The notes: a model not told the origin generated them from the sequence alone. DNA of 64,000 nucleotides from Pseudomonadota bacterium (GCA_021323945.1 JAJPKA010000002.1:354923-418922), one strand, 5' to 3'. Shown: positions 24,547 through 35,756, numbered from the stretch's first letter. Program-made: numbers and translations.

Positions 24547-25872
24547 TCAGGGTACCGTCGAGAGTAACGAATGAGCTGTCGCCGAAGCGATGCGAACGTT
24601 GACTGTATCACCGATGTTGATAGAGGGAGAGGCGGGGAAGAGCGCCGTCTTGAATTGCGGCGTCTTGCCGACCATCATGCCGCCGCCACGTCGTGCGGGA
24701 CCTTCAACGAGCACTGGGAACTCGCGCCCGATCAGCGCGCGGTTACGTTCGAGCGAGAGCGATTCCTGAAGCGCAATAACCTCAGCCAGGCGGCGGCTCT
24801 TTTCTTCGTTACTGACAGTGTCGCCAAGTTTAAAAGCGCGCGTATGCTCGCGCACCGAATACTTGAACATAAACGCCGAGTCGTAACCGACCCTCCGCAT
24901 GAGGTCGAGCGTGGCGGCGAAATCACTTTCCTCCTCACCATGAAAACCCACGATGATATCGGTCGACAGGGCCAGATTTGGAATAGCGGACCGTAAACGC
25001 TCCACCAACCTGAGATATGCCTCAGTGGTGTATCCGCGGCCCATTGCTGCCAGGATCCGATCCGAGCCAGACTGCACCGGCAGATGAAGATATGGCTGCA
25101 CCTTGGGCTCTTGCGCCATTGCCTCGATCACGTCTGCGGTCATGTCGGAGGGGTGGGGCGAAGTGAACCGAATCCGGGTAATGCCATCCACCGCGGCTAC
25201 CATTCGGAGCAATTGGCCAAATCCGACTTGATTGTAACGATAAGCGTTTACCGTCTGGCCGAGCAGGACGATCTCTTTGGTCCCGCGTTCCGCCAGACGC
25301 TCAACTTCGCGCAAGATGGCAGGGAGGGGGACACTGCGTTCGCGTCCTCGAACGTAAGGCACTACACAGAACGCACAAAACTTGTCGCAGCCCCGCATGA
25401 CCGTGACATAAGCCCGCACACCAGAATCATATGCGGGCGAGATATCACTGTAAGTCTCGGCGCGGTCCAACCGCACGTCGACGGTCGGATCACCGGCTAC
25501 GCCGGCAAGCAGTTCAGGTAGCCGCCGATAGCTGTCTGGACCAGCGACAACGTCGAGCCACGGCGCCTTTTTTAACAATGAAGCACGATTGTGCTGGGCC
25601 ATACAGCCGAGCAATCCGAGCTTACGCCTCGGGCGCGCGTCCTTGAGTCGTGCGAGATCGCTCAACCGCCCAAGAACACGGTCTTCGGCGTGCTCGCGAA
25701 TCGCACACGTATTGAGCAGGATAATGTCCGCCTCATTGGCATCGCTGGTGGTCGCGTATCCTGCCTGCTGCAGGATAGCAGTCACCATCTGCGAATCCGC
25801 AATATTCATCTGGCACCCGTAGGTCTCCAGATAGACCCGCGGCGCACGGCAGGCGTTGTTCTCGACAATCAT
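24547..25872 (-). CDS. miaB: tRNA-i6A37 methylthiotransferase MiaB (radical SAM, C-terminal TRAM domain)
   Basis: 441 aa. MTTase N-terminal domain (YLETYGCQMN), radical SAM CxxxCxxC (CDKFCAFC), TRAM C-terminus. Confidence 0.85.
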   Translation of the reverse strand: MIVENNACRAPRVYLETYGCQMNIADSQMVTAILQQAGYATTSDANEADIILLNTCAIREHAEDRVLGRLSDLARLKDARPRRKLGLLGCMAQHNRASLLKKAPWLDVVAGPDSYRRLPELLAGVAGDPTVDVRLDRAETYSDISPAYDSGVRAYVTVMRGCDKFCAFCVVPYVRGRERSVPLPAILREVERLAERGTKEIVLLGQTVNAYRYNQVGFGQLLRMVAAVDGITRIRFTSPHPSDMTADVIEAMAQEPKVQPYLHLPVQSGSDRILAAMGRGYTTEAYLRLVERLRSAIPNLALSTDIIVGFHGEEESDFAATLDLMRRVGYDSAFMFKYSVREHTRAFKLGDTVSNEEKSRRLAEVIALQESLSLERNRALIGREFPVLVEGPARRGGGMMVGKTPQFKTALFPASPSINIGDTVNVRIASATAHSLLSTVP

Positions 25873-28998: not shown

Positions 28999-30003
28999 AT
29001 GGAGGTCAACAGGAAACAATTCAAGGTACAGGCCGGCGAGAAGTTCGCTTGTGCGGCTCTCCCAACCACCGCGCTGGAAATTTGTGATCTGCCGCCCAAC
29101 GAACCCGCTTGCTTGGGTCACAGCTGTTGGGCTTCTTCGGGCCTCCCTTTTCGGCTGAACGACCGGTGGAAACTCCAACTAGGGGAGTTTGAGGCAAATT
29201 GGCTCGAGCGAGGCAAGAAGTTCGTTTTTACCACGAAGATGCCATCGGCGGAGCCCGAGATCCTGAATGAGCAGGACACGCGTCTGCTTGAACGTTTGAA
29301 CTTACTGCTCTGGGGCATCGCTATAGTTGCGGGCGTGCCATCGATAGAGTTCGGCTCCATCCTGTCCGGTGGAAGAACCGCACAGGATGCGCTTCTACGG
29401 CGCGTGGCGCCAATCGAGTCGTTTTACCGAACTCCGGGAACTTCAATACCGTCGACCACTGTTTCGGAACTGCGCAGCGCGGCGCGATTCGTGGAGCGCT
29501 TCGAGAAGATTGTTCAACGGAGACAACGGGAACAGCGCTCGTATTGGCGACCAGTGAGTGGGCTCTACGCTTTCGTTGCTGCAATGAAGGCCCCGCAAGC
29601 GGAGATTCGACTCCACCAGTTTGTAAGGGCGATCGAGTCCTTTTTGTCGCCCTCCGTTTTTGGGGCCAAAAAATTCTGCAAGTATGCCTGCAAATTTCTG
29701 AGAGATGCTCCGCGCGCTCAGACGACTCTGCGGCAGATGTACGACTTGCGCAGTGCCGCCGAACACCACCGTCTTTTTGACACGCGCACGCTCCGTGGCA
29801 TCCAAACACCAGAAAAGGTAGCTATGCAGCGTGCGAGGCAGGCCGAGGCCTTCGCCCGCGAACTCTATCGACGGTTCTTCGCGGAGCAAGAAGATTACCT
29901 TGAGTACTTCAAAGACGACAAATCGCTCAACACCCTATGGTCTGACGCCGATAAGCTAGCGACCGTGTGGGGAGAACCTTTTGACATCGATGGGGTTGCG
30001 TAG
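28999..30003 (+). CDS. Hypothetical protein, 334 aa, with candidate Rx4H (HEPN-like) motif LRSAAEHHRLF
   Basis: Long ORF in a region of locally lower GC. No recognisable family. Rx4H motif near the C-terminal third. Confidence 0.55.
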   Translation: MEVNRKQFKVQAGEKFACAALPTTALEICDLPPNEPACLGHSCWASSGLPFRLNDRWKLQLGEFEANWLERGKKFVFTTKMPSAEPEILNEQDTRLLERLNLLLWGIAIVAGVPSIEFGSILSGGRTAQDALLRRVAPIESFYRTPGTSIPSTTVSELRSAARFVERFEKIVQRRQREQRSYWRPVSGLYAFVAAMKAPQAEIRLHQFVRAIESFLSPSVFGAKKFCKYACKFLRDAPRAQTTLRQMYDLRSAAEHHRLFDTRTLRGIQTPEKVAMQRARQAEAFARELYRRFFAEQEDYLEYFKDDKSLNTLWSDADKLATVWGEPFDIDGVA

Positions 30004-30283: not shown

Positions 30284-30793
30284 CTAAATCCTACTGGCCT
30301 GGGCGGTTGTCATTCTTCTCCGACAGATTGAAGTGAGAGTGAGGATTCGATTTTTATAAACAAATTCATAATGCTCACCATGCACATCGTCACACTCAAC
30401 GACCGCATGGAAGCGTGGATCGTCAAGAATCGACACGCCGGAAACGCCGCATTGAGTTGCTGCCAAGGCGTACACCTTCTCAGTCGGTCCCAAGGCGCCG
30501 AGCGCGAAAGCCTTATCTCTATCGCACACGACAAAATTCGGTGCGTCGAGCACCTTTCGAACGATATTAAGGGCTGGACCATAGCCGATGTTCTTGACGT
30601 AGACGTCACGCCAAGTGCCACCCGGGCCTAACTGCTCTTCAAACGTGAGTATGGGCATACGAGCCGCTTTCTCCCTTCTCTTCTCAAAACTGACTATACG
30701 AGCATTTATGCACGACGCGACGGCAATCACCACCGTGGCGACGGCGGTTACCGCGGCGGAGTTCTGGTTTAGAAATGCGAGCAGCCAAGCCAT
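30284..30793 (-). CDS. Hypothetical protein with single N-terminal TM anchor (169 aa)
   Basis: N-terminal hydrophobic helix (AAVTAVATVVIAVASCINA). Local GC is about 50%, against about 60% elsewhere. Confidence 0.5.
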   Translation of the reverse strand: MAWLLAFLNQNSAAVTAVATVVIAVASCINARIVSFEKRREKAARMPILTFEEQLGPGGTWRDVYVKNIGYGPALNIVRKVLDAPNFVVCDRDKAFALGALGPTEKVYALAATQCGVSGVSILDDPRFHAVVECDDVHGEHYEFVYKNRILTLTSICRRRMTTAQASRI

Positions 30794-31460: not shown

Positions 31461-32132
31461 TTTCCGGTCACGCCTCCACCGGTCGAAATTATCGCTGATG
31501 ACTTAATCGGGCGTCCACCGCCCATCTTTGCGCTATGCAGTTCCGAACGCGTACTCGAACCGGACTAATGCGACTGGCAAGTTCGCTATCAGTCCATGTC
31601 GGTTAACTTTAAGTTACCAGACTTTGGTGGAGAGGTGTTAGGTAGATGAATGTTCTGATCGTCGCCGGAGCCATCCACCATACCGCCGCAGTACCAACGG
31701 TGGGTCGTCGAGCAGGCGCCGCCTCACCAGAACGATTACCGCTTTTGGAGTGATGCTCTGCGCGTCCCGCCCGTCTGATCGCGTCGTTCGCCGCTGTGCG
31801 TTCAAAATGCCTGTTAGCCCGCTTGCAGTTGGCGTCGGCCCTGGCTTTCAGGGTGAGGCCGATTACTCAATAAGTCTTGGCACCAACTCGTGGAGCTTCT
31901 GCGACCTCCTTGATTGCGGTATGGTTCCCGACGAGTCAGACGCCATTCATCGAGCATTAAGTTGGCCGGTACGTTTACCCAGGGATCTACCGATTGCAAG
32001 GTCGCCCGATGGCCAGGATTACGGATCTCAAAGGGTTTTTAGTCTGCCCGAGGAAGGCCGCGATCATACACGACACCGCAGCAGAGTCTCATCAAATGAG
32101 CCACGGACCTGTCCAAGTTTCGCGGATCCTAA

Positions 32133-32170
32133 CCACCGGAGACGGACGCTCCGGTGGTTACGATTTTGAT
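32133..32170 (+). terminator. Intrinsic-terminator-like hairpin CCACCGGAG-N7-CTCCGGTGG followed by TTACGATTTTG
   Basis: 9-bp perfect GC-rich stem plus a T-rich tail on the + strand. Lies in a roughly 770-bp stretch with no convincing CDS, 3' of the S1 peptidase gene. Confidence 0.45.
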
Positions 32171-32228
32171 GAACTCGCTCCGCCGAAAACGCTTACTCGA
32201 TCAGGCTGACCGAAGCCGCAGGATATCT

Positions 32229-33515
32229 CTAGCCCCAGTTGTTCCGGGCCCACAACACGAGGTCGATCATAGGTGATCCAGCTGCAGCGACATTATTGTC
32301 TTCGGGCCCATTCCACAAGGGAAAATCCCATTCCTGTTCCTCGGCGGAGGCGACGCCGACCAGCGACGGATAGTCCTCGCCGTCCCACCACCCGAAAAAC
32401 GGGCCGCCAGAGTCGCCGGCGGTCACATCGCCGTTGTCGGTCTCGAGCTCCATCGCAGCGCCATCTTCGTCGTCATCGTGGAAGCTGATCCCTCCTTGCC
32501 ACGAGGGCCGCTCGCCTTTAGCGATGGCGCTTGCATAACCCACGAAGCTCCAGTAGTTACCGTCGTTCCAACTGTCGTCGTAGGTCTCGCCGCCGAACCA
32601 TCCGAGGAAGTCACCCAGCGGATCGATAAGATGCAGCACCGCAAAGTCCCAAGCGGGTCGGTCCACATCGGGGGCGGGCTCCTGGTAGTAGGCCGCCGCT
32701 GCGTCGACGTAGGAGTAGACATTCGGACCCAGCGTTGAGACGCCATTGAAGTAGGCCGGCACAAACTGGATCATTCCCGGGTTTGCACCCCACGGCACCG
32801 CGTGCGAAGCTGTCAGCACGATATCGCGCGACACCAGCACGCCAGTTGCTCTCCACGACGGCACGAAACTGTACGGGTCGTTGTAAGAAAAGATTCGGCC
32901 AATGCATTGCCATGGATAGCCGGTGGGGTAAAAGGGCTGGCGTACGTCGTTGCCGAAAATATACAGCGGTCGCACACGTTTGCCGTTCACCCGCCGCATG
33001 GTTGGGCGAGGCAGACGCGCTGCCATTTTGGGATGGTAAATTATGTCGGCCCACTCGGGAATTTTGGGCGGCGGAAGCGGCAGGGTGGGTGAGCTGACCT
33101 TGAGCTCGTCCCGTTTGAGGCGCCGGGTTTCCGTGAGCGGCAGACCCCGCATCAGCTTGTGTTCGCGACAAATCTGAAAAGATCGCATGCCGTTTACACT
33201 GCTGATTTCGTGGATGATCGTGTCGGTGTTTACCGAGCCTGCTACTGTGAAGCTGTTGGCGGACTTCAGCTTATGCAGTGCGGTCGGCAAAGGTTGGTGT
33301 TTGATAATGTTCTCCAGCCTGAGGATGGCGTCCGCGCGCATCGGCGGCGGCACCTTTGTCCCCGTGTTTACCTGGGTTTTGCTCATTGCTCTTTCCTCCG
33401 ACCGTGACCAGCGGCCTCGCACTTCTTCCACTCGAAGGGGGAGCAACGCGGGTGCCATTGTCGCGCCCTTGATCTGTGGGGCTACGTGGCCAAGAGCTGA
33501 TGATCTCCATTGCAA
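32229..33515 (-). CDS. Trypsin-like (S1/chymotrypsin-fold) serine peptidase with ~200-aa N-terminal extension, no signal peptide
   Basis: Catalytic triad motifs in order: His (VLTASHAV), Asp (DFAVLHL), Ser (GDSGGPFF). The start codon is uncertain (TTG at 33515, or internal Met at residues 19 or 44). Confidence 0.75.
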   Translation of the reverse strand: MQWRSSALGHVAPQIKGATMAPALLPLRVEEVRGRWSRSEERAMSKTQVNTGTKVPPPMRADAILRLENIIKHQPLPTALHKLKSANSFTVAGSVNTDTIIHEISSVNGMRSFQICREHKLMRGLPLTETRRLKRDELKVSSPTLPLPPPKIPEWADIIYHPKMAARLPRPTMRRVNGKRVRPLYIFGNDVRQPFYPTGYPWQCIGRIFSYNDPYSFVPSWRATGVLVSRDIVLTASHAVPWGANPGMIQFVPAYFNGVSTLGPNVYSYVDAAAAYYQEPAPDVDRPAWDFAVLHLIDPLGDFLGWFGGETYDDSWNDGNYWSFVGYASAIAKGERPSWQGGISFHDDDEDGAAMELETDNGDVTAGDSGGPFFGWWDGEDYPSLVGVASAEEQEWDFPLWNGPEDNNVAAAGSPMIDLVLWARNNWG

Positions 33516-33527
33516 ACGCAGTTAGCA

Positions 33528-33547
33528 CTGCAAATTGTGGTTTGCAG
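33528..33547. promoter_or_regulatory. Palindromic operator candidate CTGCAAA-ttgtgg-TTTGCAG upstream of the S1 peptidase gene (additional TGCAAA half-site at 33511-33516)
   Basis: Perfect 7-bp inverted repeat seen directly. Same TGCAAA/TTTGCA core as the palindrome upstream of the C1 peptidase gene. Confidence 0.4.
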
Positions 33548-34008
33548 GGTTGCTCGAGGTCGCTTCGTCGTTGGCAGGCAATCTCCGCTCTTCCGCTTCC
33601 AATCCAACGTTACACTGAGCTGATTTGTGCACCTGGAGTTGCGCGCCGTTTGAATTTGAGCATCGCAGCGACGCAGCGGGTGCCTCACCTTCAAAGAAAC
33701 GGTTTGATCAGAAAGCACAAGCGGCCGCCGAGGCACCTCTCCGCTAACCGCCGGTCTAGCTCGAGCCGCAGGCTCGAAGCTGTCTCGGCTTGGCTAACGT
33801 GATTCAGGCCGAGCGGCATCGCCCGATACCGATCGCCTGCACTAACCCCGCCGCGCCAAACCGAGAGACACTAGCTCCGACCTCTCTGGACTGAGTCGAG
33901 CCTGGGACGAAAGAACTTTCTCAGAGGTCTTTTGTGGTCTGCCAAAAATGGTTCTCGTCCCGAGCGGTTCCGAGCATCGGAGTCCGCTCCCTCAGCGAAT
34001 TGCGGTTA

Positions 34009-34854
34009 TCAACGCAGTTTGCTGACCAGCGATGCCCGCCTATCCAGGGCTGCCAGTGCTTTGTCCCGTGGTTCGCTGGCCACGCCCAGGACCAGATGCG
34101 AAAAGCCCAGATCGATCATTCGTTTACAAGAATCCTCATTGGGGGTGATTGCGGCCACCGCCAGCTCGATTGTGTCGAAGCGCCGGCCCGCTCGATCGGC
34201 AGCCTCCCGCAGTGCGCGCAAGCGTCGGTTCAGAGCCTCATAATCCGCCGCAACCGGGTACCAGCCATCGCAGTAATCGACAACTCGTTCGAGAGCTTTC
34301 ATCGACAGCGAGCCGAGCCAGACTGGTGGCCCGCCAGGACGCACCGGCTTGGGCCAGCACCAGATCGGATCGAAGTTTACGAACTCGCCATGGAATTCGG
34401 CTACGTCCTGCGTCCAGATGCGGCGCATTGCCTTGACGCGTTCGCCGGTTACGCGCCAGCGCTTTTTAAACGGCACGCCGTGATTTTCCATTTCCTCGGC
34501 GTTCCATCCAGCACCGATTCCCAGGATCAGGCGCCCATTGGAGAGTGCGTCCAGTGACGCGGCCTGCTTGGCGAGAACGATGGGATCGTGCTCTGTGACC
34601 AGGCATACGCCGGCGCCAATTTTTATGCGGGTCGTTGCCATCGCCGCCGCCGTCATCGCTACGAACAGATCGTGGATGTGTGAATACTCGGTCGGCAGGT
34701 CGCCGCCCATCGGGAAAGGAGTTTTACGGCTGGTTGGAATATGGGTGTGCTCGGGAAAAAACACTGAGTCGAAACCGCGCTCCTCGGCAGCGCGAGCGAA
34801 TTCATCGGGCCGAATCGAGTAATCAGTGGCGAAGAGCGAAACTCCAAAATTCAT
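34009..34854 (-). CDS. LLM-class (luciferase-like) flavin/F420-dependent oxidoreductase
   Basis: MNFGVSLFATDYSIRPDEFARAAEERGFDSVFFPEHTHIP... is typical of the LLM family. Start set at the internal Met. Confidence 0.8.
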   Translation of the reverse strand: MNFGVSLFATDYSIRPDEFARAAEERGFDSVFFPEHTHIPTSRKTPFPMGGDLPTEYSHIHDLFVAMTAAAMATTRIKIGAGVCLVTEHDPIVLAKQAASLDALSNGRLILGIGAGWNAEEMENHGVPFKKRWRVTGERVKAMRRIWTQDVAEFHGEFVNFDPIWCWPKPVRPGGPPVWLGSLSMKALERVVDYCDGWYPVAADYEALNRRLRALREAADRAGRRFDTIELAVAAITPNEDSCKRMIDLGFSHLVLGVASEPRDKALAALDRRASLVSKLR

Positions 34855-34961
34855 AAGGTCACCTCGTCCGGATCCAGGTAATGGTGAATGTAATCTAGAT
34901 GGTCGACGACCTTTTTTGAAACCGGAAAAACGCCGATAGGCTGGCCGTAAAATAAGACGGG

Positions 34962-35756
34962 ATGCAGCTGTTCGACCGTAAGCGGCGTCATTTAACAAAG
35001 CCCCGCAAGTGGTGTTTTACTGGTTGGATGATGCCAGCGGCGAGGGGTCTCACAATCACCGAACGTATCAACCGATTGGACTGGCAGTCGATTCTCGAGG
35101 CGGTCAATGCCGAAGGTTTTGCCACCGTGCCCCCGCTGCTTTCTGCGCAGGAATGCTCCGAGCTGCGGCTCATGTACGGCGTCAGAGAGCGCTTTCGGAG
35201 TCGCGTCGAGATGGCGCGATTTCGGTTCGGGGTGGGCGAGTACAAGTATTTTGCTGCTCCGTTGCCACCCATCGTTGCTGAATTACGCTGCTCGCTGTAC
35301 CGCTGCGTTGTGCCGGTTGCCAACCATTGGATGAAGGTATTGCGGAGCGGAATTAGATTTCCCCCGACGCTCGATGATTTCCTCGACCAATGCCGTCGCA
35401 GCGGCCAGAACAAGCCGACCCCGCTTCTGCTGCGCTACGAAGCCGGCGGTTATAACTGCCTGCACCAGGACCTCTATGGTGAAGTCGTCTTTCCCCTCCA
35501 GTTTACGTTCATGCTGAGCCGTCGGAACGTCGATTACAGTGGTGGCGAGTTTCTAATGCTTGAACAGCGGCCGCGCGCGCAATCGAAATGCGAAGCGATT
35601 TCGCTGGACCTCGGTGCGGCGGTTCTCTTCGCAACTCGCTACAGGCCAGTCAGAGGGACTCGCGGATTCCATCGGGTTACCTTGCGGCATGGGTTAAGTC
35701 GCGTTCATAGTGGCCAGCGTTTCGCACTGGGAATAATTTTTCACGACGCGAAGTAG
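34962..35756 (+). CDS. 2OG-Fe(II) oxygenase superfamily protein (prolyl-hydroxylase-like)
   Basis: HxD (LHQDLYGE) and a distal His (RVHSG), PF13640-like. Start may be the internal Met at about 35028. Confidence 0.65.
   Translation: MQLFDRKRRHLTKPRKWCFTGWMMPAARGLTITERINRLDWQSILEAVNAEGFATVPPLLSAQECSELRLMYGVRERFRSRVEMARFRFGVGEYKYFAAPLPPIVAELRCSLYRCVVPVANHWMKVLRSGIRFPPTLDDFLDQCRRSGQNKPTPLLLRYEAGGYNCLHQDLYGEVVFPLQFTFMLSRRNVDYSGGEFLMLEQRPRAQSKCEAISLDLGAAVLFATRYRPVRGTRGFHRVTLRHGLSRVHSGQRFALGIIFHDAK

Follow-up and report, generated by a model that had tools for sequence, protein, structure and literature searches.

How a bacterial cell could keep a serine protease of the trypsin fold that has no export signal, given that active trypsin is toxic inside cells (PMC4794721), is the question raised by one gene in a stretch of 64,000 nucleotides of Pseudomonadota bacterium DNA (GCA_021323945.1 JAJPKA010000002.1:354923-418922). 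This whole stretch is called the window below, and positions are counted from its first letter. As far as its sequence can tell, the gene product is an intact S1-family serine peptidase with a catalytic domain nearest to subfamily S1B, without a signal peptide and with a long N-terminal extension. That much is far more certain than the explanation that is favoured here, namely a latent, probably cytoplasmic S1B-type zymogen in which the extension serves as a docked and restraining prosegment and activation occurs at a basic junction. Taken over all of its steps, this explanation is tentative and falls somewhat short of being probable.

The limits of the gene had to be redrawn. A reading of the sequence alone (the sequence-only reading) had placed it at 32229 to 33547 without stating a strand, and this end exceeds even the longest open reading frame (ORF), which runs from 32229 to 33515 on the minus strand and encodes 428 amino acids from a TTG start. 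Almost certainly, translation begins at the ATG at 33386, which defines the following features:
32229 to 33386, minus strand: protease gene of 385 codons plus stop (stop codon at 32229 to 32231), from the ORF list and its translation.
33394 to 33399, minus strand: ribosome-binding site GGAGGA, 7 nucleotides 5' of the ATG, read directly from the sequence.
This start is favoured because the GGAGGA motif precedes it, because a database protein (P0001) of exactly 385 amino acids is identical to the gene product, because Met1 is invariant in an alignment of 24 homologues from several phyla, and because the G+C content at third codon positions (GC3) is 0.72 in the gene but only 0.56 over the 43 in-frame codons that precede it. 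The peptide that these upstream codons would encode, LQWRSSALGHVAPQIKGATMAPALLPLRVEEVRGRWSRSEERA, does not resemble a signal peptide. On the strength of the ribosome-binding site, the homologue starts, GC3 and this peptide, the 428-residue form with a hidden signal peptide was rejected. Residue numbers refer to the 385-residue protein throughout, and the key residues were verified codon by codon.

The catalytic part of the protein comprises the following features, for which conservation was counted in 140 full-length relatives:
32232 to 32966, minus strand: S1B (V8-like) catalytic double-barrel domain, residues 141-385, very acidic (8 Lys and Arg against 35 Asp and Glu).
32802 to 32804, minus strand: catalytic His195 (chymotrypsin His57), kept in 139 of 140.
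32646 to 32648, minus strand: catalytic Asp247 (chymotrypsin Asp102), kept in 140 of 140.
32409 to 32411, minus strand: catalytic Ser326 in GDSGGP (chymotrypsin Ser195), kept in 137 of 140.
32427 to 32429, minus strand: Asp320, 6 residues before Ser326, placed by hidden Markov model (HMM) alignment to 3i78 and 3beu; Asp in 124 of 140.
32442 to 32477, minus strand: acidic, DxDxDG-like hairpin D304-D-D-E-D-G-A-A-M-E-L-E315, a candidate site for a cation or a basic peptide.
The triad appears in the order His, Asp, Ser within LTASHAV, WDFAVLH and AGDSGGP, and the oxyanion Gly324 of the GxSGG motif is kept in 137 of the 140 relatives. Both the trypsin-fold assignment and the ordered triad of the sequence-only reading were supported, and the triad is intact. 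The conservation pattern fits purifying selection on catalysis, and the protease is probably active.

Assignment of the domain to a family depended on the type of search. In Pfam, PF00089 (Trypsin) was matched with 22.1 bits, barely above its gathering score of 20.6, and PF13365 (Trypsin_2) with 19.5 bits, under its gathering score of 27.6. The whole protein had no match in NCBIfam and, as a single sequence, no significant match in the PDB. A profile of 24 family members did match S1 proteases in the PDB (E = 5e-5 to 1e-3), among them Streptomyces trypsins, YdgD, glutamyl endopeptidase and exfoliative toxins, and the PDB sequence searches matched the protease core alone. An AlphaFold model of the full-length protein, built on the family alignment, reached a mean predicted local distance difference test score (pLDDT) of 77.8 and a predicted template modelling score (pTM) of 0.83. 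The core scored about 70-96, with the exception of loop 350-362 (below 50), and shows the two beta barrels of the S1 family. Its nearest neighbours in structure and in sequence are S1B enzymes. The nearest solved structures, at 16-18% identity, all belong to secreted enzymes: the glutamyl endopeptidases of Bacillus intermedius (1p3e) and Staphylococcus aureus (V8, 1qy6), Esp of S. epidermidis, the exfoliative toxins and E. coli YdgD (7uxg).

The HMM alignment also bears on the substrate pocket. Asp320 is matched there with the Asp189 that lies at the bottom of the S1 pocket in Streptomyces griseus trypsin; this is a weak hint of cleavage after Arg or Lys and suggests that Glu is not the preferred P1 residue. 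The acidic hairpin lies opposite Asp165 and Glu180 of the same trypsin. These two residues are probably Ca2+ ligands of that trypsin, a point that is treated as a lead only. All five acidic positions of the hairpin are kept in more than 92% of the relatives (D304 131, D306 131, D308 129, E313 136 and E315 132 of 140).

The part of the protein that sets this family apart is its N-terminal extension, in which four features can be delimited:
32967 to 33386, minus strand: family-specific N-terminal extension, residues 1-140, basic (25 Lys and Arg against 10 Asp and Glu) and without a signal peptide.
33099 to 33356, minus strand: ordered part, residues 11-96, with motifs PPxx, LKSxNSF and GLP; pLDDT 70-89; P15, P34 and G81 invariant.
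33027 to 33059, minus strand: motif P110-E-W-A-D-I-I-Y-H-P-K120, supported by alignment counts; block pLDDT 70-84 with low-confidence flanks.
32967 to 32996, minus strand: basic junction R131-R-V-N-G-K-R-V-R-P140, proposed as a flexible, cleavable or pseudo-substrate linker.
Its length had been given as about 200 residues and is closer to 140, since the V8-type motif at the N-terminus of the core, YIFGNDVRQPFYPTGYPWQCIGR, starts at residue 142 and extends to residue 164; this motif is the N-terminal strand of the D-x-R/aromatic type that V8-like enzymes typically have. Length and motifs of the extension are kept in every full-length relative. The motifs read PPL[TS] with the invariant Pro15, LKSxNSF, G81-L-P, P110-x-W112-A-D-x-x-Y-H-P-K120 (P110 in 138, W112 in 137 and P119 in 130 of 140) and, at the junction, R131-R-x-x-G135-[RK]-R-[VIL]-x-P140 (R131 in 122, G135 in 138 and P140 in 135 of 140). 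Mean column identity is 38% in the extension and 52% over the whole protein.

Searches with the extension returned its own family. No meaningful match to any Pfam family was obtained for 24 extensions, and no structural match was found anywhere in the PDB. An HMMER profile of the extension gave 162 matches among 1.84 billion representative proteins. All but two were full-length family members (about 375-390 amino acids) or fragments at contig ends, and the two exceptions, both repeat proteins, were rejected as spurious matches to low-complexity stretches. Because only its own family was returned, the extension appears never to be used with another domain. The sequence-only reading had seen no recognisable domain here, and together with NCBIfam these searches agree with it. 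The structure prediction that it had proposed alongside the profile search found part of the extension ordered within the full protein, where residues 11-96 are modelled as short helices and five short beta strands, and pLDDT falls below 50 at residues 97-101 and 123-145. Modelled alone, the extension reached a pTM of 0.30 as against 0.83 for the full protein. Charge is distributed unevenly, with a net +15 on the extension and -27 on the core. The corresponding medians for the 140 relatives are +8 and -18; of these relatives, 98% have an acidic core and 83% a basic extension. Such strong complementarity suggests intramolecular docking, and the models are those expected of a prosegment that would depend on the catalytic domain for its conformation and would not form an independent domain.

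The absence of a signal peptide, already noted from the sequence alone, holds at the corrected start. It was assessed with a Kyte-Doolittle hydropathy scan of the window protein and 120 relatives (from Acidobacteriota, Planctomycetota, Pseudomonadota, Bacteroidota, Actinomycetota and others), none of which has an N-terminal hydrophobic core of the signal type or a credible membrane segment. By the thresholds of the scan 117 of the 120 relatives pass as signal-free, and the three that were flagged owe this to an internal stretch of the extension or core (positions 31-41 or 161). The N-termini of the relatives are hydrophilic and rich in Lys, Arg and Pro, and most of the proteins contain just 1-2 Cys residues. 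A C-terminal sorting domain is absent as well, since in the model the last helix of the fold is also the end of the chain. The same hydropathy result in phyla with different envelopes argues against a lineage-specific secretion route. Lacking an export signal, the protein is most likely cytoplasmic.

These observations can be combined into a mechanism. Without an export signal the enzyme would stay in the cytoplasm, where the basic prosegment would pack onto the strongly acidic catalytic domain, keep the enzyme latent and possibly help it to fold. Cleavage or displacement of the poorly ordered junction (residues 131-140) would then switch the enzyme on. If the Asp at the trypsin Asp189 position directs cleavage after Arg or Lys, the enzyme could process itself at this junction, and the acidic hairpin near the pocket may be a binding site either for the basic junction or for a cation (for example, Ca2+). 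The autoinhibitory module that the sequence-only reading considered is consistent, if indirectly, with an extension that is family-wide, exclusive to the family, dependent on context for its fold and complementary in charge to the core. Inhibition itself belongs, together with the cytoplasmic location, the processing site, the specificity and the dependence on a cation, to what we infer rather than demonstrate.

Several points weigh against this mechanism. That the extension covers the active site would be a conjecture, as the model was judged by pLDDT and pTM. No homology of the extension to any known propeptide, including PF02983, was detectable. The signal-peptide call is a hydropathy call, and the protein may leave the cell by non-classical release. 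Val138 is preceded by Arg or Lys in no more than 93 of the 140 relatives, which does not fit a strict basic P1 site at the junction, and a near-invariant Glu at about position 216 of the HMM alignment makes the pocket atypical; for these two reasons the hint of Arg/Lys specificity is weak. Finally, the model shows two beta strands at the acidic hairpin and not a classical DxDxDG loop.

An extracellular role is the first alternative to be weighed. The protein could be a scavenging or lytic protease that leaves the cell non-classically (by lysis, in vesicles or through a holin-like path), and its extension a folding catalyst of the alpha-lytic type that is degraded outside. All of the closest solved structures are secreted enzymes, the hosts are mostly soil bacteria, and a very acidic, Cys-poor core would be compatible with an extracellular bacterial S1B enzyme. 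Yet a secreted family is expected to keep an N-terminal signal or anchor, just as alpha-lytic protease has kept its signal, and none of the 120 relatives, from at least 10 phyla, has one. The missing sorting domain and the lack of a match to the Pfam family Pro_Al_protease also count against this role, as does the neighbourhood of the gene. Four annotated distant loci (Paraburkholderia, Tunturibacter, an NC10 metagenome-assembled genome (MAG) and Streptomyces), two closer metagenomic loci and 80 loci obtained by scanning 185,579 species genomes were compared, and no linked secretion genes were seen in 85 loci. The extracellular role is considered unlikely, though it has to be taken seriously.

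Alternatively, the extension might be a permanent module that recruits substrates or localises the enzyme, which would then be a constitutively active cytoplasmic processing protease of narrow specificity. The conservation of its length and motifs across phyla would suit such a module, as would the fair confidence with which residues 11-96 are predicted, and the unusual S1 region (Asp at 189 and Glu near 216) could provide a narrow specificity. Against this, the models give the extension alone no stable fold and no structural relatives, its charge points to docking within the same molecule, and none of the 85 loci offers a linked candidate substrate gene. We regard this alternative as distinctly unlikely.

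The distribution of the family bears on a third alternative. The family is small, with 188 clusters at E <= 1e-3 among 5.8 billion sequences, and the gene was found in 85 of 185,579 species genomes by a scan that was limited by its search pattern. Hosts are spread over at least 10 phyla. The best relatives of the window protein come from a Planctomycetota MAG (66% identity), Paraburkholderia (63%) and Terriglobia (about 55%), while the MiaB encoded in the same window (24547 to 25872, minus strand) is 73-81% identical to proteins of Candidatus Binataceae and 'Deltaproteobacteria' MAGs, so that an uncultured, Binatia-like bacterium from soil is the probable source of the window. This taxonomic mismatch indicates horizontal transfer, and the comparisons indicate a patchy, horizontally spread family. 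An 81%-identical homologue is adjoined by an IS21 istB gene (positions 1914-2690 of locus L090), and a 71%-identical one (locus L089) lies within a run of about ten genes without Pfam annotation; these two loci suggest a tendency of the family to lie in variable or mobile regions. The contig of the window recurs in many soil metagenomes, the longest copy being 1.7 Mb. In public databases the relatives are labelled only 'trypsin-like serine peptidase', 'V8-like Glu-specific endopeptidase' or 'hypothetical protein', and a literature search found no paper on the family.

With such a distribution the protein might be a single-gene defence module, a stand-alone protease of abortive infection or programmed death that would be kept latent and set free upon infection by a phage or damage to the envelope, for example by an influx of Ca2+. 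Many anti-phage systems contain cytoplasmic trypsin-like proteases, the family occurs sparsely and in patches with identities that do not follow taxonomy, and its neighbours are often hypothetical genes or insertion sequence elements. A nearby ORF with an invariant HEPN-like RxxxEH motif and the conserved DxDxDG-like acidic site could also be read in this sense. Known defence proteases, however, are always paired, and no conserved sensor or effector partner accompanies this one in the 85 loci. The partner search used all-against-all BLAST clustering of ORFs of at least 60 amino acids, with flanking ORFs of at least 30 amino acids, and returned no conserved neighbour and no adjacency or fusion to a defence module. 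The clusters that were left consisted of shadow ORFs of the protease and of generic short-chain dehydrogenase/reductase, response-regulator and ATP-binding cassette families at variable positions. PADLOC (PADLOC-DB 2023, with newer systems outside its coverage) had no match for the protease, four of its neighbours in the window or ten neighbours elsewhere, and PHROGs had no match. By tblastn no phage copy was found, and 72,556 plasmids held no true copy, only one disrupted Bacillus ORF of 26% identity. A defence role is judged improbable.

A related and bolder idea is that of a solitary, mobile 'suicide zymogen', in which one gene would combine sensor, inhibitor and effector, and a danger signal would free the protease to degrade cellular or viral proteins. 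The trigger might be Ca2+ that enters through a damaged envelope and acts on the DxDxDG-like hairpin, or a phage factor. If it existed, such a zymogen would be self-contained, unlike the multi-gene protease modules of bacterial immunity; it is a long shot. That the start is mis-set, and that a signal peptide or anchor lies within the 43 upstream in-frame codons, is so improbable that it can be put aside: the longest ORF does reach the TTG at 33515, but the peptide encoded there, the GC3 values, the strong ribosome-binding site and the Met shared by all aligned homologues speak against it.

The latent zymogen stays the favoured explanation, and the remaining features concern the surroundings of the gene. 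The protease gene is flanked by two unusually long gaps (31461 to 32228, 768 bp, and 33387 to 34008, 622 bp) in a region that is otherwise densely coding. Three features lie in these gaps:
33387 to 34008, minus strand: upstream intergenic gap of 622 bp, up to a gene on the same strand.
33511 to 33546: inverted repeat TGCAAAC-N22-GTTTGCA with 7-nucleotide arms, inside the upstream gap.
32130 to 32160, plus strand: hairpin with a 12-bp stem (7 GC pairs) and a T-run, 69-99 nucleotides past the protease stop, with a terminator-like score.
A long leader with a palindromic operator had been proposed upstream. The inverted repeat does exist; it lies 125-160 nucleotides 5' of the protease ATG, holds a third TTTGCA and occurs once in the window. 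The leader turned out to be an unconserved intergenic gap in which no regulatory element was detectable: there was no sigma-70-like or other promoter-like site, the predicted RNA fold was no better than that of shuffled sequence (z = 0.28), and cross-locus blastn of upstream regions found no conservation beyond genus level. The region is unconserved in relatives, and no evidence for or against an operator role of the repeat was obtained. Neither gap contained an Rfam match or a convincing ORF; the sole ORF (31750 to 32169, plus strand, 139 amino acids) had no Pfam or PADLOC match. The downstream hairpin may terminate a convergent transcript or work in both directions, and no clear plus-strand gene ends at it.

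The immediate neighbours in the window are a luciferase-like oxidoreductase gene upstream and a RidA-family gene downstream, followed by two hypothetical genes. The luciferase-like ORF (34009 to 34998, minus strand) encodes 329 amino acids from a TTG start; public calls give 281 amino acids from a start at 34854, and the longer form would overlap the divergent 2-oxoglutarate oxygenase gene that starts at 34962. One hypothetical protein (30284 to 30793, minus strand, 169 amino acids) has a hydrophobic N-terminal segment, AAVTAVATVVIAVASCI, and no match in Pfam, PADLOC or PHROGs. The other (28999 to 30003, plus strand, 334 amino acids), likewise without a match in these three databases, belongs to a rare family with 39 relatives, one of them from Candidatus Binatus. 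In an alignment of 16 sequences R251-x-x-x-E255-H256 (LRSAAEHH), H206, Q207, R210 and E213 are invariant, and the motif resembles the Rx4-6H signature of HEPN proteins, so that an HEPN-like RNase is possible. Elsewhere, four loci from three phyla (L030, L036, L053 and L067, from a Rhodanobacteraceae MAG, Dyella, Leifsonia and a deltaproteobacterial MAG) carry a convergent gene pair about 0-2.2 kb downstream of the protease, one gene with squalene-hopene-cyclase-like repeats and the other with a weak polyprenyl-synthase match. Because the pair is convergent and restricted to these four loci, a functional link of this terpene-cyclase-like and polyprenyl-synthase-like pair with the protease was rejected and co-transfer assumed.

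Comparison with known systems places the protein in an uncharacterised subfamily that seems to be a modified form of a familiar type of enzyme rather than a system of a new kind. HtrA/DegP proteases (S1C) are excluded by the absence of a PDZ domain (the Pfam matches were Trypsin and Trypsin_2 only), the absence of a signal peptide and the end of the chain at the C-terminal helix of the core. The S1B enzymes are nearest in fold. They are typically secreted pre-pro-enzymes with a signal peptide and a short propeptide, whereas the protein studied here has no signal peptide, a conserved extension of 140 residues in place of the short propeptide, Asp at the trypsin 189 position instead of a set-up for Glu recognition, and an extra conserved acidic hairpin. 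In alpha-lytic protease and the streptogrisins (S1E) the pro regions comprise 76-166 residues, dock on the protease and act as folding catalyst and inhibitor; that of alpha-lytic protease has 166 residues and is less conserved than its protease (10.1101/2020.08.30.274340). Size and conservation pattern of the extension (38% vs 52%) are similar, but the S1E enzymes are secreted pre-pro-proteins, the catalytic domain studied here is closer to S1B, and its extension resembles the PF02983 pro region neither in sequence nor in fold.

The sequence-only reading had called trypsin-like enzymes without an export signal uncommon, a view that is outdated, as cytoplasmic trypsin-fold proteases are widespread in anti-phage modules (PMC12642450, PMC12799240, 10.1101/2025.09.03.673762). 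These proteases (trypsin-MBL, nuclease-protease pairs, Pepco/Trypco and EACC1, as well as Avs2, Hachiman and retron fusions) are latent and in every case fused with, or encoded beside, a sensor and an effector that can be cleaved (same references), unlike the protease described here with its lack of a partner and of a PADLOC match. What is distinctive is therefore not the intracellular trypsin fold, but the combination of a solitary gene with a family-exclusive prosegment. Should the protein prove to be a regulated factor of cell death or defence, it would exemplify protease-gated latency in a minimal form.

In function, the intracellular subtilisins (S8) of Bacillus and Planococcus come closest to the proposed mechanism: they are leaderless cytoplasmic serine proteases that depend on Ca2+, are held inactive by an N-terminal propeptide carrying a conserved motif, and are activated by processing (PMC6220982). 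This is an analogy only, as those enzymes have the subtilisin fold and no homology to the present protein with its chymotrypsin fold and triad order. Their propeptide comprises about 18 residues, compared with about 140 in the extension described here. So far, the S1B proteases known from bacteria are enzymes and toxins that are secreted, and cytoplasmic trypsin folds are known mainly as parts of multi-gene immune modules. The prosegment, without structural relatives in the PDB, would add a new type of propeptide and, if it proved to be a tight and specific inhibitor or a folding catalyst, could serve protease engineering. A stand-alone, leaderless S1B-type protease with such a prosegment would be the trypsin-fold counterpart to the intracellular subtilisins.

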